From an uncultured Thermodesulfobacteriota bacterium (GTDB taxonomy: Bacteria > Desulfobacterota > B13-G15 > RBG-16-54-18): a DNA stretch of 42,892 nucleotides. Shown piece after piece: positions 7,042 through 23,072 of this stretch (position 1 is the stretch's first letter; every line of letters begins with the position of its first letter). Both the position numbers and the translations under genes were made by a program. Where the stretch lies: the NCBI GenBank assembly GCA_964565525.1, contig CAZMFG010000002.1, forward strand, positions 1-42,892, given 5' to 3'. Below the pieces are notes generated by a model. It was not told the origin of the DNA, searched no databases, and saw only the letters and a list, made by a program, of their open reading frames with translations.

Positions 7042-7203
7042 CTAGGAAGGACGAATAAGGGAACAATTACGCCAACCCTGTCGGCAATGGTTGCCAGCTG
7101 GGCCATCCATGTGCTGTTGCTTACACACCTGGAGCACTGCCTCCTCCGGCCTCCCTTTGACCAACACTACCAACTTGGGCTTTGTCCAGACCTTGGTTTT
7201 CAT
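7042..7203 (-). CDS. RiPP precursor peptide A1, 53 aa: MKTKVWTKPKLVVLVKGRPEEAVLQVCKQQHMDGPAGNHCRQGWRNCSLIRPS
   Basis: Translated by hand (ATG = rc of cat at 7201-7203; TAG = rc of cta at 7042-7044). The SD GGAGG lies 9 nt upstream. The 28-aa N-terminus is 26/28 identical to the second copy, and almost all nucleotide differences are synonymous in this frame. It was not in the ORF track (under 60 aa). Confidence 0.7.
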   Translation of the reverse strand: MKTKVWTKPKLVVLVKGRPEEAVLQVCKQQHMDGPAGNHCRQGWRNCSLIRPS

Positions 7204-7293
7204 CTTTTAGTGCCTCCGTGTTTTTAAGGCCTTAATCGCAACTTGTACGCCATCCAAACTATTACTTTATATCTGCATCAGATTACATGTTAC

Positions 7294-7302
7294 AGTATAT
7301 CA
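7294..7302 (-). promoter_or_regulatory. candidate extended -10 promoter element (TGaTATACT) for precursor A1
   Basis: The minus strand reads gatgTGATATACT. The identical 13-mer is conserved upstream of precursor A2 (9982-9994). It lies about 90 nt upstream of the ATG. Confidence 0.35.
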
Positions 7303-7463
7303 CATCTTTGTCATAGGGGGTAAGCAGTTTTTTGGTCATGGATGTTTACAGCAGTAACCCCCCTGCTAAAAAGCTTATGGCGGCTATCACTATATGGTAT
7401 ATATATGTGTCTGATCTTGCGTTCCTCAAAACGGTATTGTGCAGTACCGTCCGGCTACAGTGC

Positions 7464-8600
7464 TCATCCGTTCTGTCTGGGCATTAAGAGGGACAATAAA
7501 ATATCTTTTACGTCCTCGGTTTTATGTGGACGATACAGTTTGTCGGCCCAGTGTAACCGATTCATCAGCTCTTGACCTACCTCATGTCCTAACAATTGTT
7601 CCTTGTATGTCGAGAAAGAAAAATCTTTGTCCTTGAGCGCATGCATGATTGAGTTGGCTGCCACGTGACCGTACCCTAAGCTAAAGGATATCCCTTCACC
7701 CCACAAGGGATCAATTCCCGCGGCATCACCTACCAAGAGCACCCTGTTGGCTGAAAATATTGATGAGGGATGAAACCACCGTAGCTGACAGCCCTCAACC
7801 TGACTTTGATCTAGTGAAATACCCCGTGTGGCTAAAAACTCCCCAAGGATATTCCTGAGGAGAGGGATTTCCTTCCGAGAGGTGGAGAAACCACCGACGC
7901 CTATGTTCAGCCATGCTTGACCATGGAGTACCACCGGGAAGGACCAGGCATAGCCTCGAATCCCATGCCGGAATGCACACGAGAAGTCTATTTTTGCTTC
8001 CAACCTTCTTTGATCAGAAAGGTTAAAACTGTCGGCGCGCGTCATAAAACGCAGCGTCATACACGTGTTCCTTGGCCCCCGTATCCCTGCGTTTCTGCAC
8101 AGCATTCTGCGTATGATGCTTTGCGCACCATCGGCACCTACTAGGACGCGGGTAGTAAGGCTTCGCTTGGGAGTTTGTACGGCAACTGCTTCATCACGGT
8201 AAGAAAAGGAGGTCACCGGCTCGTTCTGAACAACTGAGATGCCCAGATCCAGTGCCATGTGAACTAACGCCTCATCGAATTCTTCTCGTATTACCGTCCG
8301 TAATCCGCCAATATCAAAGCAATATTCTACATAGTTATCATAATCAAAGACGAAGCACGTTCTTTTAAGCGCTAAGGAGGTTATAGTCATTGTGATGCCA
8401 AGACGCTGTAACCAGTAATCAGCATATACACTAATTCCGCCCCCACAGATCTTCTTTCGGGGGTGGGTTTTCTTCTCCAGGACTATCAGTCGATTTTTCA
8501 TTGGCGGCAGGAGCTTGCTCAGGTGTATGGCCGTCGAGATACCGGCAGGTCCTGAACCCACTACAATGACGTCATATTCAGTCTCTCTTGATCTGCCCAT
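7464..8600 (-). CDS. FAD-dependent oxidoreductase, geranylgeranyl reductase family
   Basis: 378 aa with the FAD motif YDVIVVGSGPAGISTA. The HPRKKICGGGIS and LLVGDAAGIDPLWGEGISFSLGYG segments match the pattern I associate with GGR/ChlP/BchP-type prenyl reductases. Confidence 0.75.
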   Translation of the reverse strand: MGRSRETEYDVIVVGSGPAGISTAIHLSKLLPPMKNRLIVLEKKTHPRKKICGGGISVYADYWLQRLGITMTITSLALKRTCFVFDYDNYVEYCFDIGGLRTVIREEFDEALVHMALDLGISVVQNEPVTSFSYRDEAVAVQTPKRSLTTRVLVGADGAQSIIRRMLCRNAGIRGPRNTCMTLRFMTRADSFNLSDQRRLEAKIDFSCAFRHGIRGYAWSFPVVLHGQAWLNIGVGGFSTSRKEIPLLRNILGEFLATRGISLDQSQVEGCQLRWFHPSSIFSANRVLLVGDAAGIDPLWGEGISFSLGYGHVAANSIMHALKDKDFSFSTYKEQLLGHEVGQELMNRLHWADKLYRPHKTEDVKDILLSLLMPRQNG

Positions 8601-8660
8601 AATTTAGTTCACCGTTTTGAAGATAGACGCTCCAAGAAAATGGGGTGCTTTGTGGCCTTT

Positions 8661-9530
8661 CTAGGCCCTGTATGTTAAAGCGTATTGCAGGCCGATATGC
8701 TGTATGTCCTTTGAGGATATTTCATCTTCGATAAGGGAGAGGTTGACAGAGACAAAAGCAGTCTTGTATGACTGGCTCAGAATATAATTTAAGGTTTGCA
8801 CGTGGCTGTAAGCTAGGCTGAGCCGGCGGTTGTCCAGGAGGCGAATAAATCTGGTAGGGCTTCGCGGATGAAAATAAAATACACGCCCTCCATTACCCTG
8901 AAAGGAGATGTGCAAAAGGTTGCATTCCTTAATTAATTCCTGTGCGGCATCTCGAAGTTTGAGCTTGGCCATGAGTGTAGGACTATCGAGGTCCCGGCGA
9001 TCAAGGCAAGGATATATTTCTACGCCGGTTCTCCCGTCAAAATACAAATCAATCCCAAATACAAATTCCTCATGGACCAGGTAATCGCGGATGCCTTCAA
9101 GGGGAGGGTGTAAAGAGATGACCTGATCTACCTTTTCAGGGTATTCCCTGACCATGAGATAACACTTGACCTTCGAATCACTCATGTCCGCTTTATAATC
9201 CAGACCTACGCCGATCGCTATGACCCTTAATACATCGAGGTCATTGTTGACTATTTGACCCAGAATGTCACGGTTCAACAATACGTTTTTACACCCTGCG
9301 ATCTTGTTCAAGAGATCATATATTGCATGAAGGCCGCTTTGAATATCGCTTTGCTCATACCCAAACCTGAGCCTCGAGGCATGGGTGCCTTCGCAGGAGA
9401 TCTTGACTGAGCATTCCAACAGAGAACAAGGGGTTGTGGATAGTACTTCCTCAAAGAGTCGAAGAAATGAATGCTCTTTTAACCCGAACCCCTTCTTGTG
9501 GAAAGTATACACCTGAATTAATGGATTCAT
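8661..9530 (-). CDS. hypothetical protein with ABBA-fold prenyltransferase-like strand motifs (function is inferred)
   Basis: 289-aa ORF of clear coding quality. It has recurrent short beta-strand-like motifs with aromatic or basic residues: RLRFGYE, VIAIGVGLDY, KVKCYLMV, FVFGIDLYFD, GVEIYPCL, GRVFYFHP, FVSVNLSL and IGLQYAL. These are reminiscent of NphB/CloQ or cyanobactin LynF/TruF/PatF-type prenyltransferases. Its size fits that family, and its neighbour is a prenyl-reductase-family gene. Confidence that it is a real CDS is about 0.85; confidence in the function is about 0.35. Confidence 0.5.
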   Translation of the reverse strand: MNPLIQVYTFHKKGFGLKEHSFLRLFEEVLSTTPCSLLECSVKISCEGTHASRLRFGYEQSDIQSGLHAIYDLLNKIAGCKNVLLNRDILGQIVNNDLDVLRVIAIGVGLDYKADMSDSKVKCYLMVREYPEKVDQVISLHPPLEGIRDYLVHEEFVFGIDLYFDGRTGVEIYPCLDRRDLDSPTLMAKLKLRDAAQELIKECNLLHISFQGNGGRVFYFHPRSPTRFIRLLDNRRLSLAYSHVQTLNYILSQSYKTAFVSVNLSLIEDEISSKDIQHIGLQYALTYRA

Positions 9531-9732
9531 ACGCTGATTATCGTTGCCGTTCGATTATGGTGTTTATGACAGTTGAATTTTTTACCAAGGTCACCATGCT
9601 GTCAATTGCGACGTGTATCATGGAGATAGAGAAATGAAGCCTTCATCTAGTGGTATCTAGAGCACGAGATGAGCGGGTTTGTTGCTGAGTTGATGCGCTT
9701 GTCTATTCCAGGTCTCAACTCACGCAAAAAAA

Positions 9733-9894
9733 TCAGGTAGGAATCACCCGTTGACAAGCGGAACTATAGATCGTACAGTTGTTGACATTTGGACCGCTTC
9801 TGCCCGATGTCTTACACACCTGGAGTACTGCTTCCTCCGGCCTACCCTTAAACAATACTATCAACTTCGGTTTTGTCCAGACTTTGGTCTTCAT
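9733..9894 (-). CDS. RiPP precursor peptide A2, 53 aa: MKTKVWTKPKLIVLFKGRPEEAVLQVCKTSGRSGPNVNNCTIYSSACQRVIPT
   Basis: Translated by hand (ATG = rc of cat at 9892-9894; TGA = rc of tca at 9733-9735). The SD GGAGGG lies 7 nt upstream. It has the same length as A1, the same leader, and Cys at the same positions (27, 40, 47). It was not in the ORF track. Confidence 0.7.
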   Translation of the reverse strand: MKTKVWTKPKLIVLFKGRPEEAVLQVCKTSGRSGPNVNNCTIYSSACQRVIPT

Positions 9895-9981
9895 TTTTAC
9901 GCCCTCCACGTTTTTAACGTTATAAATGCCACAAATGCGCCATCAGAACTCTTATGTATAGCTGCACTGATTAACATATAG

Positions 9982-9990
9982 AGTATATCA
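9982..9990 (-). promoter_or_regulatory. candidate extended -10 promoter element (TGaTATACT) for precursor A2
   Basis: The minus strand reads gatgTGATATACT, identical to the element upstream of A1, and lies about 90 nt upstream of the ATG. Confidence 0.35.
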
Positions 9991-10078
9991 CATCCTCCTC
10001 TCCGACATAAGCAATTCTTTTTCACGGCGCCAAGACTGTTTGAGGTCTCATGGTATCCCTTTTAATCATAACTCCACG

Positions 10079-11221
10079 TTAGAGTTCCAAAGGCAGTAAA
10101 GGGGCTCTCGTTGTCTTAAGGGCTTTAGCCCTCGCGTGGGCAACCTGGCAGAAATAGGTTACCGGTGCATCCAATTCCCCGGTCTCAAGCGAGGCATGGG
10201 CAGGGCACCACATACAGAGGTTGATCAGGGGGCATACTTGACACGTCTCTAGAAAATCGGATCTCTCCGATCGCATAGCCCGTACCTGGGGGACAAAGTT
10301 CCGCCAGGCATCGGTGAGGGTTCCTTGTTTCAGGTCATAGACACAATCGGGGTGCCAGAGGGATGGGCAGAGCCGGAAGAGGCCGTCATAGCTGAGGCTG
10401 AAACTTGCGGTCCCCGCACCGCACCGCACGAGATGGTTCGAGGTAGTATGCGATAGCTGAGGAACGATTAAGGTATCGCACTCTTTTTCCAGGGCCTGAA
10501 ACCGCTCAGGGTCCGATTGCTCCAGGGCCACGATCTCTTCGGGAGAGAGCCTTTCGGCCTTTATCTCCGCATTTCTTGTCGGGTCCCCGTCATATCTCAG
10601 ATGTAAAAAGGGGTCAAAGCGGAAGCAGTCTTTTACTCTCTCTCTGCAGAAGCGGGCAATCGCCAGCTGTTCGTGGAGATTGGTGCGAAGGGCCATGGCC
10701 TTGAGGCGTACGTTAAGGCCGTTTCCGAGGAGTAGATCGAGCCCTCGACGAAAGGCTGCAAAGGAGCCTGCCTTGCGAGTAACCCTCTCATAGGATTCTT
10801 TGCTGACTCCATAGACCGAAACCTCGATATCCCTCGGTGGATATTCCTTGAATAATTTGATATGCGCTTTTGTTATCAATGTGGCATTGGTAAAGACCGA
10901 GATCAGAAGCCCCTTTTTTTTGAGTGAGAGATAGATATCAAAAAAATCCTCTCGCAGGAGGGGTTCACCTCCGGTGATGAGGCACCACAAGGCGCCAAGG
11001 GATACGGCCTCATTTACAATCTCTTTTATATCCTCACATGAGAGTTCCCTTTTTTTGACCTCCTTATCCCCAGCCGGAAGATTGATGTAACAGTGACGAC
11101 AGTGGTTGTTGCACCGGGCGGTGATCTCCAGGTCAAAAGAGATCAGCCCCCTTCTTTTTCTCATCTTTTCCCAGAGGGGGAGATCGTGTAAGTCGGCGGA
11201 TGAAACATAGGATTCACGCAC
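10079..11221 (-). CDS. radical SAM/SPASM-domain peptide-modifying enzyme (rSAM-2)
   Basis: 380 aa with CX3CX2C in EITARCNNHCRHCYINLP and a GGEPLL segment. It has a C-terminal SPASM-like Cys array (RCGAG...LCPS...CVYD...CQVCPLINLCMWCPAH...FCQ). It is a paralogue of rSAM-3, and its start overlaps the peptidase stop by 8 nt. Confidence 0.85.
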   Translation of the reverse strand: MRESYVSSADLHDLPLWEKMRKRRGLISFDLEITARCNNHCRHCYINLPAGDKEVKKRELSCEDIKEIVNEAVSLGALWCLITGGEPLLREDFFDIYLSLKKKGLLISVFTNATLITKAHIKLFKEYPPRDIEVSVYGVSKESYERVTRKAGSFAAFRRGLDLLLGNGLNVRLKAMALRTNLHEQLAIARFCRERVKDCFRFDPFLHLRYDGDPTRNAEIKAERLSPEEIVALEQSDPERFQALEKECDTLIVPQLSHTTSNHLVRCGAGTASFSLSYDGLFRLCPSLWHPDCVYDLKQGTLTDAWRNFVPQVRAMRSERSDFLETCQVCPLINLCMWCPAHASLETGELDAPVTYFCQVAHARAKALKTTRAPLLPLEL

Positions 11222-11774
11222 CGGGCCGCCTCCTTATTATTATGAAGCGGGCAAACCTCCAGATGGGGCCTAGCAAGGGTAAGAGCCTCCAACGGGTCAA
11301 GAAGGCTATGATAAAACGATCTGGGCCGAGGCCGAAAGGGGGCTCCTCCCCGTTTCTCTCTACTTTGATAACACGCCCGAGGATGTTTGCCTTGGCGATA
11401 AACCCATCAGCCTCTGGGATATTATCCCCTTTGGTGAGGTAAGCATCCGCCCTTTTTCCGACTACCCGGTGGATGATGAGCTTGCAGGTACTCGGATGGG
11501 TGAAGACCACCACATCACCGAAACGGGGGTCAGCTCCCTGCACAGGGGCAATAGTGAGGACATCGCCATCCTTGATAAAGGGGGACATGCTAAAACCCTT
11601 GCACCGAAACCTGAAGGACGCCCCCTTGTCAAGCACGCCCCTCATGAGTTCCTCAAGGTGTTGGCTGTAAAGAGATAACTCCTCCCTCTTCTTGACAAAG
11701 AGGGCTGGCTTAACTTGCATGTCAGGTGAGGTGACCATTAAAGCAGGTTTTATATCACTTCTTTGAGGCTTCAA
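11214..11774 (-). CDS. S24/S26-family serine peptidase (signal peptidase I / SipW-like motifs), candidate leader peptidase
   Basis: 186 aa with a KGFSMSPFIKDGDVL box (Ser nucleophile), a KLIIHRVVGK box (His/Lys general base) and a YLTKGDNIPEADG box. The C-terminal segment FIIAFLTRWRLLPLLGPIW is hydrophobic. It overlaps the PqqD gene by 20 nt. Confidence 0.7.
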   Translation of the reverse strand: MKPQRSDIKPALMVTSPDMQVKPALFVKKREELSLYSQHLEELMRGVLDKGASFRFRCKGFSMSPFIKDGDVLTIAPVQGADPRFGDVVVFTHPSTCKLIIHRVVGKRADAYLTKGDNIPEADGFIAKANILGRVIKVERNGEEPPFGLGPDRFIIAFLTRWRLLPLLGPIWRFARFIIIRRRPGA

Positions 11775-12066
11775 CGATCATCTTCCTCTTGAGGAGTTCT
11801 TTTGCAAGGCCGATCACATCCCGCTCGATCTCGCCGTCCGGTGCCTCATACTCCGTAGCGAGTTCCTCAGCCACCGCCTTCAAGCTCTTTGTGCCGTCCA
11901 GTTTTTCCCACATGGCCCTGCCAGTCTCATTTAGGGTAAAGAGTTCGTCCTCCATATCCCCCATGCCGGCAACAAGGGGGACGATGATGAGTTCTCCCTC
12001 AATCTCCCTGCATACCAGGTCCTCCGATGGGACGTAGGCGGCGTCAAATTTGACCTTTGAGTCCAT
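11755..12066 (-). CDS. PqqD-family peptide chaperone (RiPP recognition element protein)
   Basis: 103 aa. The pattern ...VCREIEGELIIVPL...FTLNETGRAMWEKLDGTKSLKAVAEELATEYEAP...ERDVIGLAKELLKRKMI is typical of stand-alone PqqD/RRE proteins. It is flanked by rSAM/SPASM genes. Confidence 0.8.
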   Translation of the reverse strand: MDSKVKFDAAYVPSEDLVCREIEGELIIVPLVAGMGDMEDELFTLNETGRAMWEKLDGTKSLKAVAEELATEYEAPDGEIERDVIGLAKELLKRKMIVEASKK

Positions 12067-13288
12067 TACAGACCTCCTTTGTGTGGCGAGTGAAGTGAGT
12101 TGTGGCGATAAAAATTTGTATCCTTTCTTTCCAGTTCCTTATCTGCCAGGCCTGCTCGCCTTCTTCAAGCAGCCCCAAGACCCGTGCCTGCGCATGGGCG
12201 ACCTCGCAGAGGTAGTCAACCGGTGTGTCCAAGGTCCCGTGCTCCATCCACGACCAGGCCGGGCACTGTTCGCAGAGGCCCTTCAGAAAGCAGTTGGCAC
12301 AGCGGGTGAGGTAATCACGGTTTTTGGCTTTCCTCTGCCTTATTCTTGGAAAGAAATTCGTCATGGCATCTTTGAGTGAGCCTTTTTTTAGATCATAAAC
12401 GGTGTCTGGGTGCCTCAGCAACATGCATGGTTGGAGATAACCGTAGGCATCGACACATCCGCTCCTCACCCCTGCGCCGCAGGAGAAGATGTTTGTCCCC
12501 GATGGCCTGGCAAACATAGAACAGAATTCCCGCATCTCTTTCAGGTATTTCTCTTGCCTCCTGGAAAAGAATGTTATTACATCCTCAGGTGAGGGTCTGA
12601 GCCCCTTGATAAGGATGTTCTTTTTGCTCGAGTCCCGGCGTGCGCGAAGATCGAGTAAAAGGGTATAAGAGGGTGCTGTGTCCATCCAGGGGATGGTGGA
12701 GGCCCACGATTCAAATTCCTCTATTTCTTCTTTGTTAGGTGGGAGAAGCGCACCCGTGACCACAAACGGGACCTGATATTCTAATAACAAATGCGTACCG
12801 CTCCACGCGGCTTCAAAAGAACCCGCGATTCTAGTGATTGCCTCATAGGAGTTCCTCGTCATTCCGTAGAGGGTAATTTCGATAGGCATGAGGGGTGGGG
12901 TGCGCCCAAATACCTTGGCCAGCGTTGGTGTAATCAATGTGGCGTTGGTGCAGATCGTCACCCGCAGGCCGAGCCTGCGGGCAAAGATATAGAGGTCTTC
13001 AAAATCTTCCCTCAAGAGGGGTTCCCCCCCTGTGAACCTTACTGTGAGACAGCCGAGGGAAAGGGCCTCTTGGAGGATCTCCTGTATCTCTCCTGTCGAC
13101 AGTTCCCTTTTTTGGGCATGACGATCGTCCGCAGGGAGATTTATATAACAGTGGATACAGTTGTTGTTGCAGCGTTCGGTGAGCTCCATGTCGAGTGAGT
13201 TAAGAGCAGTGGTATTCCCCTTCCCGACGGAGACCCCATCGTCCTTTATCTTTACTACAATATAAGAATCTTTAATGACCATCCTCAC
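12044..13288 (-). CDS. radical SAM/SPASM-domain peptide-modifying enzyme (rSAM-3)
   Basis: 414 aa with CX3CX2C in ELTERCNNNCIHCYINLP and a GGEPLL segment. It has a SPASM-like array (SCGAG...CVDAYGYLQPC...RCANCFLKGLCEQCPAW...LCE). The start codon is uncertain (GTG at 13288 or ATG at 13282). Confidence 0.85.
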   Translation of the reverse strand: MRMVIKDSYIVVKIKDDGVSVGKGNTTALNSLDMELTERCNNNCIHCYINLPADDRHAQKRELSTGEIQEILQEALSLGCLTVRFTGGEPLLREDFEDLYIFARRLGLRVTICTNATLITPTLAKVFGRTPPLMPIEITLYGMTRNSYEAITRIAGSFEAAWSGTHLLLEYQVPFVVTGALLPPNKEEIEEFESWASTIPWMDTAPSYTLLLDLRARRDSSKKNILIKGLRPSPEDVITFFSRRQEKYLKEMREFCSMFARPSGTNIFSCGAGVRSGCVDAYGYLQPCMLLRHPDTVYDLKKGSLKDAMTNFFPRIRQRKAKNRDYLTRCANCFLKGLCEQCPAWSWMEHGTLDTPVDYLCEVAHAQARVLGLLEEGEQAWQIRNWKERIQIFIATTHFTRHTKEVCNGLKGQI

Positions 13289-13336
13289 GTGTCCTCAACT
13301 GCAGAATCCAAAGGCCAGGACGTGCTGTTCACTCGA

Positions 13337-14317
13337 TCAAAGGTGCCTTAAGAGGTCTGTTACCCCTCCATCTTTATTAAAGTGAAGGGTATAGCAGGGA
13401 ACTTCATGAGCCATCGTATTCATTAATGCAAGCATTTTCTCCCACCACTCGGCTGTAACCAAAGGTTTTATCAGACAAGCCAAGAGGATCTTGATGATAT
13501 CCTGCGTGTGGTCCATATGGATGAGTTGGTTTCCCCGGTCCTGTTTCAGAAAAAGAATGGCCTTCAACGGCGCGGAATCTGCCGAAACATCAGGAATATC
13601 GCCATGACTCCAGGTCCCGTGGATCTTGAAACCCTCCGGCCACCTTCTTACAATCATCCGGTCATCGCACAGAATCTTTGCCTTACCCTGCATCATCATC
13701 ACCATGGTGGATTTGCCCGCATTGGAATGTCCCACGAAAAGGAGTCCTTTGCCGTCAAGCACTACGCCGCTTGCATGGATATAACACCCTCCCCGTTCAG
13801 CCAGAAGTTGGGCGAGGATGACCTGATCAGTTGGAAAGAGGGTGAGGGAAGGGATATTGCCCCTGTGGAAAGGCCTCTCAGTTTTATTATATATCTTGAC
13901 CGTTCTACGGTTCATTATCGCCAGTTGGTGGATATCCCTTTCTTGAACAAGGCGTGGACGCGTGAAACTTCCCCCATTTGTTTTCTTACGAGATCTTGGA
14001 TAGAGGCGGCGCCATAGTCGTTTAATCGGTTCCCATGTGCCCCCCGGGACAACCACGTAGATCCAGCAAGGCCCCTTTCTGTAAATGACCCACGGGGGCC
14101 TCCGATAGACCTCGTCAGCCATATCCAAGCTGGTCAGAGGTGGTAGGGAGAAGTGGTGCCTGATGGTTATGGTATCCTTTCCAGGTCTATCCACTTCAAA
14201 GAGTCTGAACTTGGGGTGGAAGGTCGTATCGGTGATGGGTAAGTCCGATACCATCTTTATAGTGATACCGGCAATGTGATAATAGCGGCGGTCTAAGACC
14301 CGGGGTTTTTCAGTCAT
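13337..14317 (-). CDS. HPr kinase/phosphorylase-related P-loop kinase (HprK C-terminal-domain-like)
   Basis: 326 aa. The segment IHASGVVLDGKGLLFVGHSNAGKSTMV...ILCDDRMIV matches the HprK catalytic-domain pattern (hG..v..kGvLl.G.SG.GKS....L..DD). Confidence 0.7.
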   Translation of the reverse strand: MTEKPRVLDRRYYHIAGITIKMVSDLPITDTTFHPKFRLFEVDRPGKDTITIRHHFSLPPLTSLDMADEVYRRPPWVIYRKGPCWIYVVVPGGTWEPIKRLWRRLYPRSRKKTNGGSFTRPRLVQERDIHQLAIMNRRTVKIYNKTERPFHRGNIPSLTLFPTDQVILAQLLAERGGCYIHASGVVLDGKGLLFVGHSNAGKSTMVMMMQGKAKILCDDRMIVRRWPEGFKIHGTWSHGDIPDVSADSAPLKAILFLKQDRGNQLIHMDHTQDIIKILLACLIKPLVTAEWWEKMLALMNTMAHEVPCYTLHFNKDGGVTDLLRHL

Positions 14318-14469
14318 CCCTTAATTTTTAGCGGAAGCTTGTAGTTAATGTCTTAAAAATTATGTACTTTTTTGCCATGTTAGCACCTAACGTACCTGAC
14401 CGCAAGGCGCGAAGGATTCAACCAACGCTAGCTGGTTTCCAGCTTCCATAGCCTTCTCGGAAAGCTTGA

Positions 14470-15300
14470 TCACATAAAGGTGTCCCTCAGGAGCTTTATA
14501 CACTTCCACAGCCTATCGCCGATGACGCTGAAGGAAAAACCCTTAGGGAAGAATATCTCCTGTAGGGCTTTTCCTTTATGTTTTGACTGAAAGAGAAAAA
14601 GAAGGTCACCGAAATTTTGATTGAACGTTCCCCCCTTTATTTTTTTCAGAATCCATCGTTCTCCAATGGAGAGATTCCCTTTCCAGGATGGGAAAATATC
14701 CGGGTACAGGAAGCTGAGATAGACAAGGGTGTGCTCAGCACCCATCCGTTTTGCCTCGGCGCGTATCGCTTCATCAGAGAGCTGATAGTATTTTTGTATC
14801 CTGGTCAGATCTTTCCACCCCTTCTCAGATCCGAAAGAGTGGCTCTGGAGGTGGATGACCGTGGAGATAAAGAGGTGCTCCGGGCAAGGGATCTTTATCT
14901 CTAGTGCGTCTAATTGCTTGGTGATGCCTTGTTGAAAGACCTCATCCATAGAGACCGTCAGGCAAGCGTTCGCCAGGGCTGTGCGGATAGGGGTGAGGAA
15001 GGAGGTGTGCAGGTCGAGGGAGAGGCCGTTCCTATAGAAGACCCCCGGTTCCGCCTCCTGCCATTTCAATTCCCGTAAGACCCCTTTGAGCTGTTCCACC
15101 TCCCGTTCCCGGACCATGATGTCCACATCGAGCATCCCCCGATCCCCCAGCTCGGGGTAAACATCTCCCAGAAGGCTTATTCCTCTGAAGAAGATAACCT
15201 CAGGGCCCGTCTTTTGTAGCCGTTCCGTCACCTCCCGCAGGTGGTGGATGAGGATGAGATTCTGGGAGGCCGTTTGGTAAAAGGTGAGTTCCCGCTTCAT
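14470..15300 (-). CDS. nucleotidyltransferase family protein (PF14907/NTP_transf_5-like)
   Basis: The ORF track gives 14470-15351. I prefer the ATG at 15300 (MKRELTFYQ...), which forms an ATGA overlap with the upstream glycosyltransferase stop. Motifs are GMLDVDIMV and LSLDLHTSF. Confidence 0.6.
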   Translation of the reverse strand: MKRELTFYQTASQNLILIHHLREVTERLQKTGPEVIFFRGISLLGDVYPELGDRGMLDVDIMVREREVEQLKGVLRELKWQEAEPGVFYRNGLSLDLHTSFLTPIRTALANACLTVSMDEVFQQGITKQLDALEIKIPCPEHLFISTVIHLQSHSFGSEKGWKDLTRIQKYYQLSDEAIRAEAKRMGAEHTLVYLSFLYPDIFPSWKGNLSIGERWILKKIKGGTFNQNFGDLLFLFQSKHKGKALQEIFFPKGFSFSVIGDRLWKCIKLLRDTFM

Positions 15301-16424
15301 CCGCTTTCCCCTGAGACCTCGTGGTAGAGGTCGATGGTCCTTTGAAGGCACACGTTCCAGTCGAAGAGGGCCTCTGTTCGCTTCCTCCCCTTCGCTCCCA
15401 TCTCCTTCCTCAGTCGGGATGAGTTAAGGAGTGCGATGGCCTCCTGTGCCATCCTCGTTGTATCTCCAGGTCCTACCAGGACGCCCCCGTCACCAACCAC
15501 CTCGGGGAGCCCCCCGACGGCCGTCGCCACGATGGGCTTGGCGGAGGCCATGGCCTCTACCGCGGCCAAGTTGAATCCGTCGTTCAGGGATGGGATGAGC
15601 ATAATATCAAAGGCAGCGATGAGGTCGGGGATGTCCTCTCGATACCCTAAAAAGTGGAAGCCCGAGATGCCCTCGGCCATCTTCAGAAGCCCTTCTTGCA
15701 TCGGACCATCCCCCACCATGACGAAGTGGGCCTTTGGGTAAGCGGCCTTTATTTTTTTGGCAGCCTCCACAAATCGATCAGGCCCTTTTATCTCTTCCAT
15801 TCTCCCCACAAAGCCTACGACAGGTACCTGTTGTGCTATCCCCAACTCAGTTCTCACCTTTTTACCTTCTCCTGGGAAGCGTTGTATATCTATTCCATTG
15901 TAGATGGTAATTACTCTTTTTTCGTCGCCGATCCCCTTATTCAGGTATGCCCTGCGTTCGTCCTCGGAGATGGTGATAATCCGCCCACAGAATCTGGCAG
16001 CCAGACGCTCGAGAAAGACGTAGAGCCGCTCTTTCCCTGTGCCGAAATATCCATAGAATAGATGGCCGTGGGGTGTGTGGATGGTCTTGGTGCGGGTTAT
16101 CCGTCCTGCTATCCTTCCTAAAATCCCTCCCTTGGTGGTGTGGGTGTGGAGGAGCGCCGGCCGCTCTCTGCGGATGAGGGCGCAGATCTCAAAGAAGGAA
16201 AGGAGATCATGCAAGGGGGCGATATCGCGGCGCAGATGGGGGAGGAGGTGATAAGAAATATTGAGCCTCTGAGAGAACCCCCAGGGGTCTTCTTCGGGTT
16301 GCTGAGAAGGGCCGGAGGACATAACGATCTCTATACCCAGTTCCGTGAGTCCTCTGATCAGTTGGAGGAATACCCGGGGTGCGCCGCCCTTATCGAGTCT
16401 CGTTATCAGCTGTAAGACCTTCAC
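15297..16424 (-). CDS. glycosyltransferase family 4 (GT-B, group 1)
   Basis: 375 aa with a DGFNLAAVEAMASAKPIVATAVGGLPEVV (EX7E-type) C-terminal domain. The GTG start overlaps the upstream stop (GTGA). Confidence 0.85.
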   Translation of the reverse strand: MKVLQLITRLDKGGAPRVFLQLIRGLTELGIEIVMSSGPSQQPEEDPWGFSQRLNISYHLLPHLRRDIAPLHDLLSFFEICALIRRERPALLHTHTTKGGILGRIAGRITRTKTIHTPHGHLFYGYFGTGKERLYVFLERLAARFCGRIITISEDERRAYLNKGIGDEKRVITIYNGIDIQRFPGEGKKVRTELGIAQQVPVVGFVGRMEEIKGPDRFVEAAKKIKAAYPKAHFVMVGDGPMQEGLLKMAEGISGFHFLGYREDIPDLIAAFDIMLIPSLNDGFNLAAVEAMASAKPIVATAVGGLPEVVGDGGVLVGPGDTTRMAQEAIALLNSSRLRKEMGAKGRKRTEALFDWNVCLQRTIDLYHEVSGESG

Positions 16425-17470
16425 CCGCCCTTTTCTCTCTTCATCCTGCGGTTGGCAGCGATTTCCAAGATGGTCGCAAAGGAGAGGATGACCAGGGCCT
16501 GCAGGAGGAGGATCCAGAAGTAGTCCGGCGCCATCTTGATCAATAGGGCGTTCATGCCCAAGGCGATGGTCAGGAGGTAGATGGCGAGCACCGTCTTGGT
16601 CTTTGATCCCAAGAGGTAATGAAGCCGGTGGTGGAGGTGGTCCTTCCCCGTGTATTCGATGAGTTCGCGCACGTTATGCACTTCCCTCATAATTATCCTG
16701 CGCACGTTGATATAGGCCATGTCATAGATGACCACGGCAAAGATCAACAGCGGGGCGGCGAGGGAGGGGAGGAGCATTTCCTCCGACCACTCGGCCATGA
16801 TGGCGAGGGAGGCGAGAACGAAACCCAAAAAGTTGCTCCCCGTATCCCCGAGAAAGATACTCGCCCCCTTCTCCCCACGAAAGTTATAGGGGATAAAGCC
16901 GATACAAGTACCGAGGATAAACAGACAAAGAGGTACCATGGAGAACGACCCCATTTGGAGGAAGACGATGGAGAAGAGGCAGGAGAAGATGATGCAGAGA
17001 CCCGCTGCCAATCCGTCCATTCCGTCGATGAAGTTGACGGCATTGGTAATTCCCACCAGCCAGAGGACCGTGAGGGTATAATTGAGGGCATAACCCCACC
17101 AGGCCTTGGGGAAGATGGTAGCGCTCACACCAAAGGAGATGAGGATGCAGGCGGCCACGATCTGGGAAACAAACTTTGTCACGCCAGGCAACTCGTGCGC
17201 GTCGTCTCCGACCTCCACTACAAAGATGAAGCTTGCGGCGATCAGGAGGCCCAAAATCTGTCCCGAGGGTTTGGTGAATACCAGCGCCGATATGATGAAA
17301 GCGGTGAAGATGGCCCACCCCCCGGTCTTGGGGGTGGGGACGGTATGGACCCTGCGTTGTGCGGGGATATCCATAAAACCCCATTTTTTCCCTAACCACC
17401 TTGCCAGTGGGGTGAGGATAAGGGAGAGGAAAACGGGGACGATGAGGGGCGGAAGGAATTCTTCAAGCAT
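16421..17470 (-). CDS. MraY/WecA-family polyprenyl-phosphate N-acetylhexosamine-1-phosphate transferase
   Basis: Multi-TM protein with NAVNFIDGMDGLAAG and VHTVPTPKTGG motifs. I place the start at ATG 17470 (MLEEFLPP...), an 8-nt overlap with the upstream stop. The ORF-track extension to 17644 runs inside the aminotransferase gene. Confidence 0.8.
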   Translation of the reverse strand: MLEEFLPPLIVPVFLSLILTPLARWLGKKWGFMDIPAQRRVHTVPTPKTGGWAIFTAFIISALVFTKPSGQILGLLIAASFIFVVEVGDDAHELPGVTKFVSQIVAACILISFGVSATIFPKAWWGYALNYTLTVLWLVGITNAVNFIDGMDGLAAGLCIIFSCLFSIVFLQMGSFSMVPLCLFILGTCIGFIPYNFRGEKGASIFLGDTGSNFLGFVLASLAIMAEWSEEMLLPSLAAPLLIFAVVIYDMAYINVRRIIMREVHNVRELIEYTGKDHLHHRLHYLLGSKTKTVLAIYLLTIALGMNALLIKMAPDYFWILLLQALVILSFATILEIAANRRMKREKGG

Positions 17471-18515
17471 GTCTATCCTCGACGGCCCTCCTGAAGCAGA
17501 AGGCAATATGTCGCACCTCATCCGCCGTAAGGCGCGGATAGAGGGGGAGGGAAAGGGCCTCTGCATAGACCTTTTCACTCGCCTCGAAGCCGTTGAGGCC
17601 GAGATAACGATGGAGGGGGCAAAAGACGGGACGCTGGGCCTCAATACCTTGGCGATGCAACCGCGCTATGACTTGATCAAGGTCTCCCCCCTTGATTCTT
17701 ACTACATACCGGTAATATATTCCCCCCGGCCGCGGCACGATCACTCCCTCAAGCCCTCTTATGAGTTTGTCGTACAATTGAGCTCGGTCCATTCTTTGTT
17801 CGAGAAAGAAGGGGAGTTTCCCTAACTGTATATTCCCCATCCGTCCCTGCAAGTCGGTCATGCAAAAATTATACCTTACTTTGTAATCATCTTTTTTGTC
17901 ATACTCGCGCAGATCTTTTACCCGTTCCAGGATTTTCTCGTTCCGGGAGGCTACCATCCCTCCCTGGCCGGTGGTGATGACCTTGGTGGCGTAAAAGGAG
18001 AACATGGCGGCTGTGCCCCAAGACCCCGTCATCCTTCCTCCATAGGTTGCCCCCAGGGATTGTGCGCAGTCCTCTATGACGGGTGGACCCAAGGCGAGAA
18101 AATCGTCCATATCTTCTACGGGATGTCCGAACATGTGGGGGATGATAATGGCGGCGGTCTTCTTGGTGAGGGCCTTTTTGGTCGCCGAGATGGAGATGTT
18201 CATATGCCCCTCATCGATGTCCACTATCGTGGGGACAGCGCGGCAATGGTGTACGGCATTGAGGAGGGCGCTGCAGGTAAAGCTGGGGATGATTACCTCA
18301 TCCCCCTCTTTGACCCCGAGGGCCAATAAGGTGAGGTGCAAGGCAGCGGTTCCTGATGCGATAGCTACCGCCCCACTGAGACCCAGGTATGAGGCCATCT
18401 CCCGTTCAAATCCCTCCACCTGTTCACCGGTGGCGATCCACCCAGTGGCGAGGACTTCTTGGAGACCTTCGATCTCCTCTCTCCCCAGGGTGGGCATGGA
18501 ATGGGTTATGTTCAT
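17463..18515 (-). CDS. DegT/DnrJ/EryC1/StrS-family PLP-dependent sugar aminotransferase
   Basis: 350 aa with ...AIASGTAALHL... and FSFYATKVITTGQGGMV (PLP-lysine region). Confidence 0.85.
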   Translation of the reverse strand: MNITHSMPTLGREEIEGLQEVLATGWIATGEQVEGFEREMASYLGLSGAVAIASGTAALHLTLLALGVKEGDEVIIPSFTCSALLNAVHHCRAVPTIVDIDEGHMNISISATKKALTKKTAAIIIPHMFGHPVEDMDDFLALGPPVIEDCAQSLGATYGGRMTGSWGTAAMFSFYATKVITTGQGGMVASRNEKILERVKDLREYDKKDDYKVRYNFCMTDLQGRMGNIQLGKLPFFLEQRMDRAQLYDKLIRGLEGVIVPRPGGIYYRYVVRIKGGDLDQVIARLHRQGIEAQRPVFCPLHRYLGLNGFEASEKVYAEALSLPLYPRLTADEVRHIAFCFRRAVEDRHA

Positions 18516-19123
18516 GGCAAGAAGTAACGGAGGGGTGCAAAACCTTCGGCAAAGGTCACCCTGGCCTGGGTGCCCCGGAAGCGGGCCGTCGCGATGGCGA
18601 TGTCAACGATATTGGAGCCGGGGATGTTGGTCTTATGAAATTGAGATGTGTGGGCCTCCAGGCATTTGATCTTTTCCTCCAACGTCTCGCCGATGTCTGC
18701 GAATAACAGGGGATTGAAGCCGATGGACGTCGGGGTCTCATAGAAGATGACCTTGGGCGTATACCGGGAAGCGGAGATGGTAGCCTTGGCGAGACGCTCG
18801 TGGTCCTGATGGGTATCCTCGGGATAGTTCACCAAGATCAAAGAGGGTTTTATATCCCGCATAAATCCCTCCAATAGGTCTATCAAGGGCTTGTCGAAGA
18901 TGATGAGGGTGTCTTTGTATCCCCCCCAGAATAGTTCTTTAGACCCCAGTATCTCGGCGGCCACCTCTTGTTCCCGCTGTCTCACCTGTGGATCTCCGCC
19001 CATGCCTCCATCAGCGACTACTAAGAGATAAATTTCATCCCCTTTGTTTCTGTATTGGGCGAGCGTGCCGGAACACCCAAATTCGATATCGTCGGGGTGG
19101 GCCCCGATGGCTAATACTTTCAT
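18512..19123 (-). CDS. PIG-L/LmbE-family N-acetylglucosaminyl deacetylase
   Basis: 203 aa with the N-terminal MKVLAIGAHPDDIEFGCSGT motif. ATGA overlaps occur at both ends. Confidence 0.85.
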   Translation of the reverse strand: MKVLAIGAHPDDIEFGCSGTLAQYRNKGDEIYLLVVADGGMGGDPQVRQREQEVAAEILGSKELFWGGYKDTLIIFDKPLIDLLEGFMRDIKPSLILVNYPEDTHQDHERLAKATISASRYTPKVIFYETPTSIGFNPLLFADIGETLEEKIKCLEAHTSQFHKTNIPGSNIVDIAIATARFRGTQARVTFAEGFAPLRYFLP

Positions 19124-19803
19124 TCCGTGCCCTCCAAGATCTGCAGGGAATCTGGGCCGCAGTTGAAGAGGAGGTCGAGGAGGGATAGGTATGGGATAAA
19201 GTCCCCATATAATTGCATATAGATGGGGTGTTTGAAGTCTTGAAAGAGCACCTTGATTCCCTTTTTGTTAAACGGTTTAAGATCAAGATAATGTTTTCCC
19301 CCAGTCCCTGAAAGATAGGTATCGGCCTTCACGGATTCGCAGATGGCCGCAAGCCGCTCCGATGGTTCCTCTGGGAGATGCCCCAATGCAGAGGCGACCA
19401 CTGTCTTTTTGTTTGTCTCTAACATCCTCAGGAGCATGAGGACGCTTGCTCTATTCGTCTCGGAGATGAATTCCGAGTCCTGGGCATAGAAGCGCTTCAC
19501 CTCAGGGAAGAGGTCCTGAAAATAGGGGGCCTTTTGGTAGTTGATCTCCAGTGCCCTGACATGTTTCTTTCGCCAGTCGATTCGGTTGTTGATCCGCACC
19601 TCATCGATAGGCTCAGGGTATTTGTACAAGACGGGCACGGTGAGCCATATCCAACCCTGGGCTGTCTTTATCTTATTTCTATTTTGAAACTCGTTTTTTT
19701 TGAATTGGACGTTATCGAGGAAGATAAAGATATCGCTTTTTGCGATTTTGTCAAAATATCCCAACCACGGCATAAATTGGGGTTGATGTATTGCCGCGAT
19801 CAT
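19120..19803 (-). CDS. WbqC-family protein
   Basis: 227 aa. The N-terminus IAAIHQPQFMPWLGYFDKIAKSDIFIFLDNVQF is characteristic of WbqC-like proteins from O-antigen and glycan loci. Confidence 0.8.
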   Translation of the reverse strand: MIAAIHQPQFMPWLGYFDKIAKSDIFIFLDNVQFKKNEFQNRNKIKTAQGWIWLTVPVLYKYPEPIDEVRINNRIDWRKKHVRALEINYQKAPYFQDLFPEVKRFYAQDSEFISETNRASVLMLLRMLETNKKTVVASALGHLPEEPSERLAAICESVKADTYLSGTGGKHYLDLKPFNKKGIKVLFQDFKHPIYMQLYGDFIPYLSLLDLLFNCGPDSLQILEGTE

Positions 19804-20612: not shown

Positions 20613-22349
20613 ATGTTGGAATATGAGAAATACTGGCGCTTTTTAGATCTCCCGTTCAAGGTCTTTCCCTCGGGGGATACCTATTTCCCGTCCGCGACCC
20701 ATGAGGAGGCCAGGGCGAGGATATTACAGGCCATCAGGACCCGCAAGAGGATCATTTTGATTGCGGGTAAGCCCGGTTCAGGGAAGACCACACTCTGGAA
20801 GAGGATCAAGGGCGATCTTGAAAACTACAATGTTCCCTTTGCCATGGGCGTGGCTGCAAATCCTATGGGCAGTTTCCCTGAGATTTTGCGAGAGATGGGG
20901 GAAAGTATGGGACTTGACCCCTCTCTTGATAATAATGGTTTGGTAGTGGCCCTCAAGGATAAGCTCAGAGATAACGTTGAGAAAGGTGCTACCACTATAT
21001 GGCTCATCGATGAATGCCAGGTGATCAAGGATAAGGATATCTGGGAGAGGCTCAGGTTGGTGACCAACTGGTCATTGAATGGTACTCCGGTGTTGACCCT
21101 CTTCCTCTTGGGCCAGCCGGAGATCACACCCATCCTTCGTGAGAAAGAGGGTTTTTCCCAGAGGATAGGGGCCTTCTACGTTCTCGGCACCCTCACGTTA
21201 GAGGAGACCGGTGCTTATATCGAGTATCAACTCAAAAAGGTAAACGCTGCTGATCCGAACATCTTCACGGAAGACGCCGTACACATGATATATCAATATT
21301 CAGAGGGGTTGCCGCGCAACATAAACCATATTTGTGACGCCGCCCTCCTTCTCGGTGCGATACGGGGAAAAGATTTTGTCGATGCCCGGATGGTGGAGTC
21401 GGTTGCTGAAGAACGGGCGTCACTCATGAGTGAGCGAGAGGTCTTGTGGACACCGATGCGGGAGGTCTTTCAGGCAACGGATGGAGGGGAAGGTGACAAC
21501 CATATATATGAAAAACTCATAACAATATTCGACCGATTCTATTACCTTAAGCAGGGGCAAAACCCCATAGATCTGGTGGAGAAGGAGCTCGAACCCCTTG
21601 TCCCTCAATTTATCAGGGCCTTGAAGACGGACAGGGGACTCATGAGGAAGGCTCTCTTCGGTGAAGAACCCGATGTGTACCTTCTCCAACACGGCGTGAA
21701 TGTGGCGGCTCAGGGGGTGAAGATAGGTATGGGGATGGGTTACAGTGAGGATGAATTGAAACGATTGTCCCTGGCGGCCCTGATTCACGATGTAGGGATG
21801 GGGGATATTCCGGAGGAGATATGGACCAAGAAGGGATATCTCTCACCCTCTGAAATTGATGAGATGAGGAAGCATCCCCTGTATGGCTATGAGCGCCTTA
21901 AACCGTTAGATGAAATTGCCAAGGTGGTACTGCAAGAGCATGAGAGGATGGATGGTTCAGGGTATCCTCATGGCCTTTCAAGCGAGGACATCCATGAGTT
22001 TTCATACATCATCGGTGTTGCTGATATATACGACAGTCTCCTCCATTCCCGCCCCTATCGGGACAAACGGTACTCCTCTTTTGAGGCAATCAAGGAGATC
22101 GTGACAAAGGAGTTGCGGAGATTCCCCGCCAGTGTGCTCAAATCACTGGTCGCCTATTTTCTCTTTCCAGTGGGGAGCCACGTGGAACTGAACAGTCGAG
22201 AGAAGGCTGAGGTGATCGACGAGAACAGGGCGAGCCCGATGCGCCCGGTGGTGAAGATCACCCATGACAAAGACGGTCGACAATACAGCAAACCCAGGAT
22301 CGTCGATCTGGACAGGGATCAAAAATTCTTCATTACGAGAAGTTTCTGA
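20613..22349 (+). CDS. ExeA/GspA-like AAA ATPase fused to an HD-GYP domain (putative c-di-GMP phosphodiesterase)
   Basis: 578 aa. The N-terminal half has Walker A IAGKPGSGKTTL and Walker B IWLIDECQ (AAA_22/ExeA-like). The C-terminal half has LIHDVGMG ... EHERMDGSGYPHGL (HD-GYP signature). Confidence 0.8.
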   Translation: MLEYEKYWRFLDLPFKVFPSGDTYFPSATHEEARARILQAIRTRKRIILIAGKPGSGKTTLWKRIKGDLENYNVPFAMGVAANPMGSFPEILREMGESMGLDPSLDNNGLVVALKDKLRDNVEKGATTIWLIDECQVIKDKDIWERLRLVTNWSLNGTPVLTLFLLGQPEITPILREKEGFSQRIGAFYVLGTLTLEETGAYIEYQLKKVNAADPNIFTEDAVHMIYQYSEGLPRNINHICDAALLLGAIRGKDFVDARMVESVAEERASLMSEREVLWTPMREVFQATDGGEGDNHIYEKLITIFDRFYYLKQGQNPIDLVEKELEPLVPQFIRALKTDRGLMRKALFGEEPDVYLLQHGVNVAAQGVKIGMGMGYSEDELKRLSLAALIHDVGMGDIPEEIWTKKGYLSPSEIDEMRKHPLYGYERLKPLDEIAKVVLQEHERMDGSGYPHGLSSEDIHEFSYIIGVADIYDSLLHSRPYRDKRYSSFEAIKEIVTKELRRFPASVLKSLVAYFLFPVGSHVELNSREKAEVIDENRASPMRPVVKITHDKDGRQYSKPRIVDLDRDQKFFITRSF

Positions 22350-23065: not shown

Positions 23066-23072
23066 GGATGTG

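Follow-up and report, generated by a model that had tools for sequence, protein, structure and literature searches.

The window, a 42,892-nucleotide stretch of DNA from an uncultured Thermodesulfobacteriota bacterium, carries what gene content and comparison with related loci identify as a widespread, uncharacterised type of RiPP cassette, in which radical SAM (rSAM) enzymes for crosslinking occur together with a nucleotidyltransferase and an enzyme resembling HPr kinase. Our main reading, to which we give a probability of about one half, is that the cassette joins the toolkit of phosphorylated lasso peptides and of linear polyphosphorylated peptides (LPP; Popov et al., Nat Commun 2026, PMC13381572) to radical-SAM crosslinking, the precursor being phosphorylated on its C-terminal Ser or Thr. 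Gene content, catalytic motifs, the predicted fold, co-occurrence and the near-invariant terminal hydroxyl are directly established. The features concerned are as follows.

7042..7203, (-) strand: precursor A2, 53 residues; leader as in A1; core ending C-SLIRP-S before the stop
7464..8600, (-) strand: geranylgeranyl-reductase-family flavoprotein, clade-specific accessory (TIGR02032, 3e-38)
8661..9530, (-) strand: LynF/TruF/PatF-like peptide prenyltransferase, clade-specific accessory (TIGR04445, 2e-34; PF19156, 1e-27), which lies outside the kinase question
9733..9894, (-) strand: precursor A1, 53 residues; leader MKTKVWTKPKLIVLFKGRPEEAVLQVCK; core ending C-QRVIP-T before the stop
10079..11221, (-) strand: radical SAM/SPASM peptide maturase 2 (PF04055, 1e-23; 58–83% identity in related loci)
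11214..11774, (-) strand: archaeal/ER-type signal-peptidase-I homologue (SpI-like), predicted leader peptidase (TIGR02228)
11755..12066, (-) strand: PqqD-type RiPP recognition element (RRE) (PF05402, 1e-14; lasso PqqD chaperone models match)
12044..13288, (-) strand: radical SAM/SPASM peptide maturase 1 (PF04055, 4e-21; conserved in related loci)
13337..14317, (-) strand: ScmC-family HPr-kinase-like P-loop protein, 326 residues, predicted peptide kinase from motifs, profiles and AF2 fold
14470..15300, (-) strand: PF14907 (NTP_transf_5) nucleotidyltransferase, PsmN/LppN-like, 276 residues, with a DxD metal-binding motif
15297..16424, (-) strand: group-1 (GT4-family) glycosyltransferase GT1 (Pfam Glyco_trans_1_4, 1e-35; Glycos_transf_1, 2e-32)

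The kinase-like protein has the elements expected of the HprK/P fold, namely a Walker A P-loop followed by an Asp-Asp pair and an upstream His. The motifs GHSNAGKST (residues 196–204) and CDD (217–219) lie in a catalytic domain of approximately residues 165–326, which is preceded by an N-terminal domain, and a variable insert occupies approximately residues 94–125. Residues H181, G196, H197, G201, K202, T204, D218, D219 and R220 are invariant in 26 homologues of 51–88% identity. None of the NCBIfam matches reaches its cutoff (ScmC, 4e-10; HprK_rel_B, 1.6e-6; HPr(Ser) kinase, 2.6e-5), the HPr(Ser) kinase model TIGR00679 scoring 23.6 bits against a curated threshold of 240. The window protein has no match in the Pfam library scanned, which is without the PF27840 model, and its assignment to the ScmC family (PF27840) is read from the annotation of its homologues; PF27840 is precomputed on all 120 homologues listed, and Hpr_kinase_C (PF07475) matches one homologue weakly. 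In a phmmer search of the PDB, the segment from H181 to D219 aligns weakly with the HprK structures 3tqf and 1jb1 (E 0.15–0.74), while a fold search with the AF2 model (pLDDT 82) returns ATP-PEPCK (E 2e-7) and HprK/P (1kkl and 1jb1; E 6e-5, TM ∼0.5 on target). By this structural model the protein is a member of the P-loop kinase family with an HprK/PEPCK-like fold, and the proposal of a P-loop HprK homologue in the sequence-only reading, made on the two motifs, is borne out by these motifs together with the invariant His/Lys/Asp-Asp residues and the predicted fold. The ScmC-type kinase family comprises 277 cluster representatives at E≤1e-30.

The nucleotidyltransferase recognised in the same reading from its DVD and DLH motifs (residues 58–60 and 96–98) is likewise confirmed, with a match to PF14907 at E 9e-23 (81.5 bits; gathering score 31.2) and, among 28 homologues, invariant G40, D58 and D60, H98 conserved in 96% and D164 in 93%. 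Its AF2 model is poor (pLDDT 67) and the top Foldseek matches, Pol-beta-type nucleotidyltransferases, are non-significant (best E 0.04); a database search returned close relatives alone (at least 57% identity), none of which connects it with the enzymes of lasso or LPP systems. The ATG start at 15300, which agrees with the end coordinate given in the sequence-only reading, forms an ATGA with the stop codon of GT1, the gene upstream, and the adjacency of the two genes is kept in loci L002–L005, L013–L016, L020, L022 and L023. GT1, translationally coupled in this way, may work together with the nucleotidyltransferase as its partner.

Maturase 1 matches the NCBIfam ScmF, ScmE, StsB and PapB classes, in each case below cutoff, while the SpI-like protein exceeds the cutoff of TIGR02228 (sigpep_I_arch; 58.9 bits, cutoff 51.85) and 64 homologues conserve its motifs G60-x-S62-M-x-P65, H102-R103 and D117. 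The cluster sits within a polysaccharide locus. Upstream lie WbqC, PIG-L, DegT, a polyprenyl-phosphate sugar transferase and GT1; downstream lie Wza, Wzc, Wzy and a flippase. A promoter and terminator scan gave nothing above background.

A clear regularity lies at the C-terminus of the precursors. We collected 192 distinct homologues from ∼100 loci and a search of 5.8 billion proteins, in which A1 is represented by an identical protein (P0144). The leader here reads W-x-K-P-x-L...EE-x-V-L-x-x-C-K, and 3–4 Cys residues are conserved. Of the 192 precursors, 155 end in Ser and 33 in Thr (17% Thr), and the remaining four look truncated or frameshifted. Orthologues lacking a terminal Ser/Thr, named beforehand as evidence that would tell against a terminal site, were looked for and not found, with 188/192 retaining the hydroxyl. 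Ser and Thr together account for 18% of core residues and 98% of C-terminal residues, a pattern that exceeds chance, and in 98% of precursors the stop codon follows the Ser/Thr directly. Elsewhere in the core the pair reaches at most 44% at any position (Ser at -6, 44%) and at most 29% in the eight positions after the leader 'CK'. Several cores carry two hydroxyl residues only, at non-equivalent positions; in A2 these are at -6 and -1. Close orthologues exchange Ser and Thr at the terminus (RVIPT, RAIPS, SVTPS), and in the window one kinase accompanies a Thr-ending (A1) and a Ser-ending (A2) precursor. A Cys at -7 in 172/192 precursors defines a C-x5-[ST]-COOH tail. The Pro-Ser and Pro-Thr ends first remarked upon are indeed present in both window precursors (LIRPS and RVIPT), but as a general feature Pro at -2 does not hold, being found in 41/192 and characteristic of a clade rather than of the family. 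Because nearly all of the ∼190 precursors end in Ser/Thr beside an HPr-kinase-like enzyme, the last residue is likely to be the phosphorylation site of the kinase, and the suggestion that Ser53 or Thr53 is a plausible phosphosite gains support from this being the sole conserved hydroxyl position in the alignment.

The co-occurrence of the genes is consistent with this assignment. The kinase is a core gene found in all related loci collected, although most of these were gathered via the kinase, and finding it in them is to some extent built into the sampling; approached from the precursor side, it is present in 7/8 loci, the eighth being an orphan precursor without any maturase. A search for precursor-bearing cassettes without the kinase yielded only L101 (an orphan precursor, no maturases) and L096 (a locus cut off upstream). 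The kinase and an rSAM maturase are often fused into one protein of 650–800 residues, which links the kinase to the same substrate peptide. Among the 27 related loci of 12 kb or more, 18 have the nucleotidyltransferase, a frequent accessory, and the terminal Ser/Thr stays in loci that lack it; such accessory status is expected if its step depends on prior phosphorylation. GT1 occurs in 13/27 of these long loci, and loci with no adjoining glycosyltransferase likewise have the kinase together with the precursors and the genes for rSAM, RRE and SpI. One relative, L012, is rSAM-less, with a kinase of 38% identity and a candidate precursor ending in Asn.

The nearest characterised systems are phosphorylated lasso peptides of the paeninodin and pseudomycoidin type and the LPP family. 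In the biosynthesis of these lasso peptides, the linear precursor receives a phosphate on its C-terminal Ser from the kinase (PadeK, ThcoK or PsmK), and addition of hexose to that phosphate requires PsmN, an NTP transferase that is itself uncharacterised (PMC6993621; PMC9266682), so that the lasso background invoked in the sequence-only reading, a kinase acting on the C-terminal Ser with an accompanying nucleotidyltransferase, was correct. The lasso kinases require a His-Lys-Asp-Asp set (review, PMC9266682), including the DD pair of PsmK (D158A/D159A), and the PsmN mutant D134A/D136A is inactive (PMC6993621). The present cassette shares with these clusters an HprK-like kinase with the His-Lys-Asp-Asp set, a nucleotidyltransferase, a discrete PqqD-type RRE, the leader motif W-x-x-P-x-L, a conserved hydroxyl as the very last precursor residue and a frequent polysaccharide-locus setting. 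It differs in that the macrolactam synthetase (C; Asn-synthetase-like) and the B2 cysteine leader protease are absent among the genes at 5800–16424 and in the related loci inspected, and in having two to three rSAM/SPASM enzymes, conserved Cys residues, an SpI-like peptidase and Thr as an alternative terminal residue. The kinase, compared here by motifs and family assignment, belongs to Pfam ScmC rather than Hpr_kinase_C, and the hosts are Thermodesulfobacteriota, Omnitrophota, Aminicenantes and others, whereas the lasso hosts are Bacillota.

The LPP systems are similar in other respects. LppK, the only characterised non-lasso relative, phosphorylates the internal Ser3 and rejects Thr; this residue lies in the conserved FETxxS of the leader/core motif YxxPxVLxHQxIxFETxxS, and LPP are reported to be restricted to Bacillota (PMC13381572). 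[quoted passage not shown] Unlike LPP, which have no rSAM enzymes and for which a linear product is predicted, it encodes two rSAM/SPASM enzymes and precursors with 3–4 conserved Cys; FETxxS and a conserved Ser near the leader-core junction are absent. The MsbA-like exporter of the LPP core set does not adjoin the cluster in the window; such a gene lies beside the nucleotidyltransferase in L096, L098, L099 and L012. The earlier idea of this chemistry on a non-lasso scaffold is partly pre-empted by LPP (PMC13381572).

The combination of an ScmC-like protein, a PqqD homologue and two rSAM/SPASM proteins, with the kinase falling in Pfam 'ScmC', also recalls the SynChlorMet (Scm) cassette. The four NCBIfam models score far below their cutoffs in the window (ScmC 39.4/125, ScmD 19.4/100, ScmE 75–79/400 and ScmF 76–77/400 bits), which makes the cassette a distant Scm relative, not an equivalog. 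To our knowledge, the NCBIfam description of SynChlorMet assigns neither precursor nor function. Sactipeptide and ranthipeptide systems (AlbA, StsB and PapB classes) similarly pair rSAM/SPASM enzymes and an RRE with Cys-rich precursors; they are without the invariant C-terminal Ser/Thr, and in their literature we found no HprK-like kinase, PF14907 enzyme or SpI-like peptidase described. A literature search for a RiPP system with both rSAM and HprK-like enzymes likewise found no description.

In the proposed mechanism, the PqqD-type RRE would bind A1 and A2 at their W-x-K-P-x-L leader motif, and the ScmC kinase, using ATP and its His/Lys/Asp-Asp site, would phosphorylate the C-terminal Ser/Thr hydroxyl of the still-linear precursor. 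The two rSAM/SPASM enzymes would then crosslink the conserved Cys residues, the PF14907 enzyme, probably with the coupled GT1, would extend the phosphate with a sugar or nucleotide, and the SpI-like peptidase would remove the leader. By analogy with characterised relatives, this is favoured by kinases of this type phosphorylating a conserved Ser while the precursor is linear and bound to the RRE, and by PF14907-type enzymes acting on the phosphate; the invariance here of the His-Lys-Asp-Asp residues of the lasso kinases, with the DD pair of PsmK, points the same way. Counted against it are the internal target of LppK and its rejection of Thr, which forms 17% of the termini here, the separate Pfam family of the kinase, the fixed Cys at -7, with which the terminal residue could be crosslinked, and the Asn-ending candidate precursor of L012. 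As to the fate of the phosphate, we put forward, as a quite doubtful extension, that phospho-Ser/Thr may be a handle leading to a peptide-phosphoglycan conjugate, in which the PF14907 enzyme and GT1 would attach the crosslinked peptide through a phosphodiester to a glycan or the locus polysaccharide, or else that the phosphate is eliminated, which would give a kinase-driven lanthionine-type ring from Cys(-7) to residue 53 in an rSAM RiPP.

A ring with the Cys at -7 could also account for the terminal hydroxyl by itself, an unlikely explanation. The Ser/Thr would be kept as ring partner of the Cys at -7, either through an rSAM-made thioether to C-alpha or C-beta, with the kinase acting elsewhere or as an ATP-dependent accessory of the rSAM enzyme, or through a lanthionine-type ring that would close once the residue has been phosphorylated and the phosphate eliminated, the phosphate then being only a leaving group. 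The C-x5-[ST]-COOH spacing and the frequent rSAM–ScmC fusions would fit. rSAM/SPASM enzymes working on a C-terminal residue exist (MftC), and Cys-Thr links are known from ranthipeptides. Acceptance of both Ser and Thr, unlike in LppK (PMC13381572), is typical of dehydration/lanthionine chemistry. Yet a crosslink acceptor need not be the last residue, whereas the stop codon here is immediate; no lyase gene was recognised, the known HprK-like RiPP kinases yield stable (poly)phosphate (PMC6993621; PMC13381572), and the frequent PF14907 enzyme suits onward decoration of a retained phosphate.

It is improbable that the kinase targets an internal Ser/Thr of core or leader while the terminus is conserved for export, peptidase recognition or target binding. 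LppK offers a precedent at Ser3 (PMC13381572), the L012 relative lacks a terminal Ser/Thr and Ser at -6 is fairly common, but none of the internal hydroxyls is conserved, and the cores with just two hydroxyl residues, A2 among them, leave few and non-equivalent alternatives. We consider it highly improbable that kinase and nucleotidyltransferase phosphorylate or activate a sugar for the surrounding polysaccharide pathway, the RiPP genes being mere neighbours. The location of the cluster and the coupling to a glycosyltransferase would suit this; against it, the kinase travels with rSAM, RRE, SpI and precursor genes without an adjoining glycosyltransferase and is frequently fused to the rSAM enzyme, and lasso and LPP clusters also lie in capsule loci with kinases that are still peptide-directed.

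Phosphorylation of peptide natural products is rare; the cases documented so far concern lasso peptides, a cyanobactin kinase domain and the LPP family of 2026. Our analysis assigns precursors and the sequence rule C-x5-[ST]-COOH to the Scm-like cassette type, and the ATGA-coupled GT1 may represent the 'missing partner' postulated by the LPP authors for their inactive nucleotidyltransferase (PMC13381572). If terminal Ser/Thr phosphorylation is true, the module of RRE, HprK-like kinase and nucleotidyltransferase would extend to radical-SAM-crosslinked peptides and would reach phyla well outside Bacillota.

The RiPP genes of the window form an operon-like minus-strand run with small intergenic gaps or overlaps, and a third radical SAM (rSAM) gene lies on the plus strand.

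15297-16424, minus strand, GT1 glycosyltransferase
14470-15300, minus strand, PF14907 nucleotidyltransferase
13337-14317, minus strand, HPr-kinase-like protein
12044-13288, minus strand, rSAM/SPASM maturase 1
11755-12066, minus strand, PqqD-type RiPP recognition element (RRE)
11214-11774, minus strand, S24/S26-type (SpI-like) peptidase, best match archaeal-type signal peptidase I, above the curated cutoff
10079-11221, minus strand, rSAM/SPASM maturase 2
9733-9894, minus strand, precursor A1
8661-9530, minus strand, LynF-like (LynF/TruF/PatF-type) peptide prenyltransferase
7464-8600, minus strand, geranylgeranyl-reductase-family flavoprotein
7042-7203, minus strand, precursor A2
5800-6963, plus strand, third rSAM/SPASM gene, adjoining A2

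All sequence features cited in the sequence-only reading are present in the window, including the GHSNAGKST and CDD motifs of the kinase-like protein. H181, K202, D218, D219 and the remaining P-loop are invariant among 26 kinase homologues (identity down to 51%), and the pairwise similarity to HprK proteins of solved structure, though weak, falls exactly on this His...P-loop...Asp-Asp core. The AlphaFold model (pLDDT 82) matches both ATP-dependent PEP carboxykinases and HprK/P, which have one common fold. Kinase homologues match Pfam PF27840 (ScmC), one with a weak Hpr_kinase_C match; the nearest NCBIfam model for the window kinase is the 'SynChlorMet' cassette's ScmC, whose cutoff it misses by a wide margin. 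A basic insert of low confidence (residues ~94-125 of the N-terminal domain, pLDDT <50) is found in the window's clade and is missing from most homologues at 50-55% identity. The DVD and DLH motifs read in the nucleotidyltransferase are likewise borne out, the protein being a clear PF14907 member with an invariant DxD and a near-invariant DLH His (96%); its start codon overlaps the GT1 stop codon (ATGA).

A1 and A2 (53 aa each) have the common leader MKTKVWTKPKL[IV]VL[FV]KGRPEEAVLQVCK and end, as originally read, in RVIPT* and LIRPS*, respectively. Scanning a leader profile against all small ORFs of the related loci gave 87 distinct complete precursors, 85 of which have a terminal Ser or Thr, and the same is true of 115 of the 118 precursor clusters found when 5.8 billion proteins were searched with a precursor profile, independently of the kinase. 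The combined set comprises 192 distinct precursors, of which 188 terminate in Ser (155) or Thr (33); across the cores as a whole, Ser plus Thr account for 18% of residues. Of the remaining four, one is a fragment where a 666-bp contig ends, one a 40-aa stub, one probably a frameshift and one a short copy. The earlier proposal that Ser53 or Thr53 is a plausible phosphorylation site has thus survived a check for orthologous precursors without such a terminus, and we continue to infer it. The Pro preceding the terminal hydroxyl holds for A1 and A2 but not as a family trait (Pro at -2 in only 41/192). Since Cys occupies -7 in 172/192, the family tail is C-x5-[ST]-COOH. Ser and Thr are swapped at the terminus between close orthologues, and single loci, including the window, hold both Ser- and Thr-ending precursors with one kinase. 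At 9734-9750 (minus strand), the final codons and stop of A1 are overlapped by a short hairpin with a T-run behind it, which could be an attenuator downstream of the precursor gene; the scan for terminators as a whole did not rise above background.

Related loci, collected with the kinase protein and then its alignment (13 genome and 80 metagenome loci), come from MAGs of Thermodesulfobacteriota, Omnitrophota, Aminicenantes, Bacteroidales and others. Their conserved core comprises the kinase, 2-3 rSAM/SPASM genes, PqqD, an SpI-like peptidase and 1-6 precursors. Among the 27 sources that are 12 kb or longer, the kinase is present in 27, a precursor in 26, the SpI-like peptidase in 26, PqqD in 25, the PF14907 nucleotidyltransferase in 18 and GT1 in 13. 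Many distant loci encode the kinase as the C-terminal half of one 650-800 aa rSAM-ScmC protein, on which independent gene calls agree, and about one in five of the top 150 kinase-family representatives is of fusion length. The following related loci carry such fusions (rSAM/SPASM with a C-terminal ScmC domain) as single genes of 663-756 aa.

L094, 6402-8672
L098, 16552-18573
L099, 12921-14912
L102, 498-2624

Viewed from the precursor side, the ScmC gene adjoins the precursor in seven of eight precursor-bearing contigs with usable flanks (L094, L098, L099, L100, L102, L103 and L104); a ninth, L096, is truncated upstream. In the eighth, L101, the precursor (10001-10207, Acidobacteria MAG, ending ...NDNFPS, with a PAS sensor and a response regulator as neighbours) is an orphan, the nearest 10 kb being free of maturation genes. 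No cassette with maturases and precursor but without the kinase was found among the loci examined, so kinase presence and terminal Ser/Thr are inseparable here. A counter-example to the terminal hydroxyl comes from L012 (7390-14647, Proteobacteria MAG), an rSAM-less, LPP-like cassette (LPP, linear polyphosphorylated peptides) with a PF14907 enzyme, sugar transferase, ScmC-like kinase (38% identical to the window's), PqqD, SpI-like peptidase, PEP-CTERM protein and MsbA-like ABC pump. Its candidate precursor (46-49 aa, start codon uncertain) ends ...IESQN, and this terminal Asn suggests that the rule belongs to the rSAM-bearing branch.

Accessory genes vary. The prenyltransferase and reductase (7464-9530, minus strand), placed between A1 and A2, are kept only in the window's clade (L002-L005, L013, L014, L020, L038, L039, L074); cyanobactin-type prenylation beside rSAM maturases is unusual. 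The third rSAM gene, at 78-87% identity across the close clade, does not correspond to the rSAM that distant loci have either upstream of their kinase or fused to it. Just past its main cassette and on the opposite strand, L002 has a second, divergent kinase-like gene (11541-12800, minus strand; catalytic core 27% identical), accompanied by an S24-like peptidase of its own. L102 (3310-9931) lacks a PF14907 enzyme but carries three sulfotransferase genes, which hints that terminal hydroxyl/phosphate chemistry is replaceable by sulfation; sulfotransferases were already noted in lasso clusters.

The RiPP region lies within a polysaccharide biosynthesis/export locus, as reported for LPP and paeninodin clusters. 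Upstream (16421-19803, minus strand) are WbqC, PIG-L deacetylase, DegT aminotransferase and polyprenyl-phosphate sugar transferase genes; downstream (22349-41683, plus strand) are a Wza-like exporter, Wzc-like protein, Wzy, flippase, several glycosyltransferases and a heptosyltransferase, GC falling to 35-40% at 27-32 kb. A 578-aa protein with AAA_22 ATPase and HD_5 phosphohydrolase domains (20613-22349, plus strand) separates the RiPP/sugar from the export genes.

The gene complement, the motifs, the modelled fold, the co-occurrence and the conserved residues are shown here, and they best support a scheme whose chemical steps are each drawn by analogy. ScmC, guided by the RRE, would phosphorylate the terminal Ser/Thr hydroxyl; subsequent decoration of that phosphate would fall to the PF14907 enzyme, plausibly together with GT1, its ATGA-coupled neighbour. 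Crosslinks on Cys residues would come from the rSAMs, and leader removal from the SpI-like peptidase. The main rival is a ring that includes the terminal residue, made by an rSAM or after phosphate elimination, as the fixed Cys(-7) spacing may signal; it accounts for the tolerance of Thr too, but a crosslink acceptor would have no need to be the final residue. An LPP-like internal phosphosite is a lesser alternative, made less likely by the finding that no internal hydroxyl is conserved: Ser/Thr reaches at most 44% at every other core position, and several cores have just two hydroxyl residues (Ser(-6) and Ser(-1) in A2). A kinase role in the neighbouring polysaccharide pathway, also lesser, is weakened by the fusion of the kinase to rSAM and by its presence in loci without glycosyltransferases.

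Terminal phosphorylation has precedents. For pseudomycoidin, the HprK-family kinase PsmK (poly)phosphorylates the precursor's C-terminal Ser (D158A/D159A dead), and PsmN, an uncharacterised NTP transferase, is needed for the hexose on that phosphate (D134A/D136A dead) (PMC6993621). Lasso kinases have a common His-Lys-Asp-Asp set and act on the linear precursor, whose C-terminal Ser is 'extremely conserved' (PMC9266682). LPP clusters (Popov et al. 2026, PMC13381572) sit in capsule loci, with leaders bearing a [Y/W]xxP motif, of which the window's cassette has the Trp form; their kinase phosphorylates internal Ser3 and rejects Thr, and their nucleotidyltransferase was inactive in a heterologous host, for which the authors proposed a missing partner. 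The same study calls LPPs and paeninodins restricted to Bacillota and does not mention rSAM enzymes. In the literature available without subscription, our search turned up no report that connects an HprK-like kinase with an rSAM RiPP.

The cassette in the window combines the lasso/LPP toolkit with rSAM/SPASM enzymes and conserved Cys residues, in phyla quite different from Bacillota; the Proteobacteria cassette of L012 means that LPP-like systems, too, may not be Bacillota-only. By analogy, the window's system would be classed with the phosphorylated RRE-dependent RiPPs of lasso/LPP type, its putative phosphorylation here joined to rSAM crosslinking.
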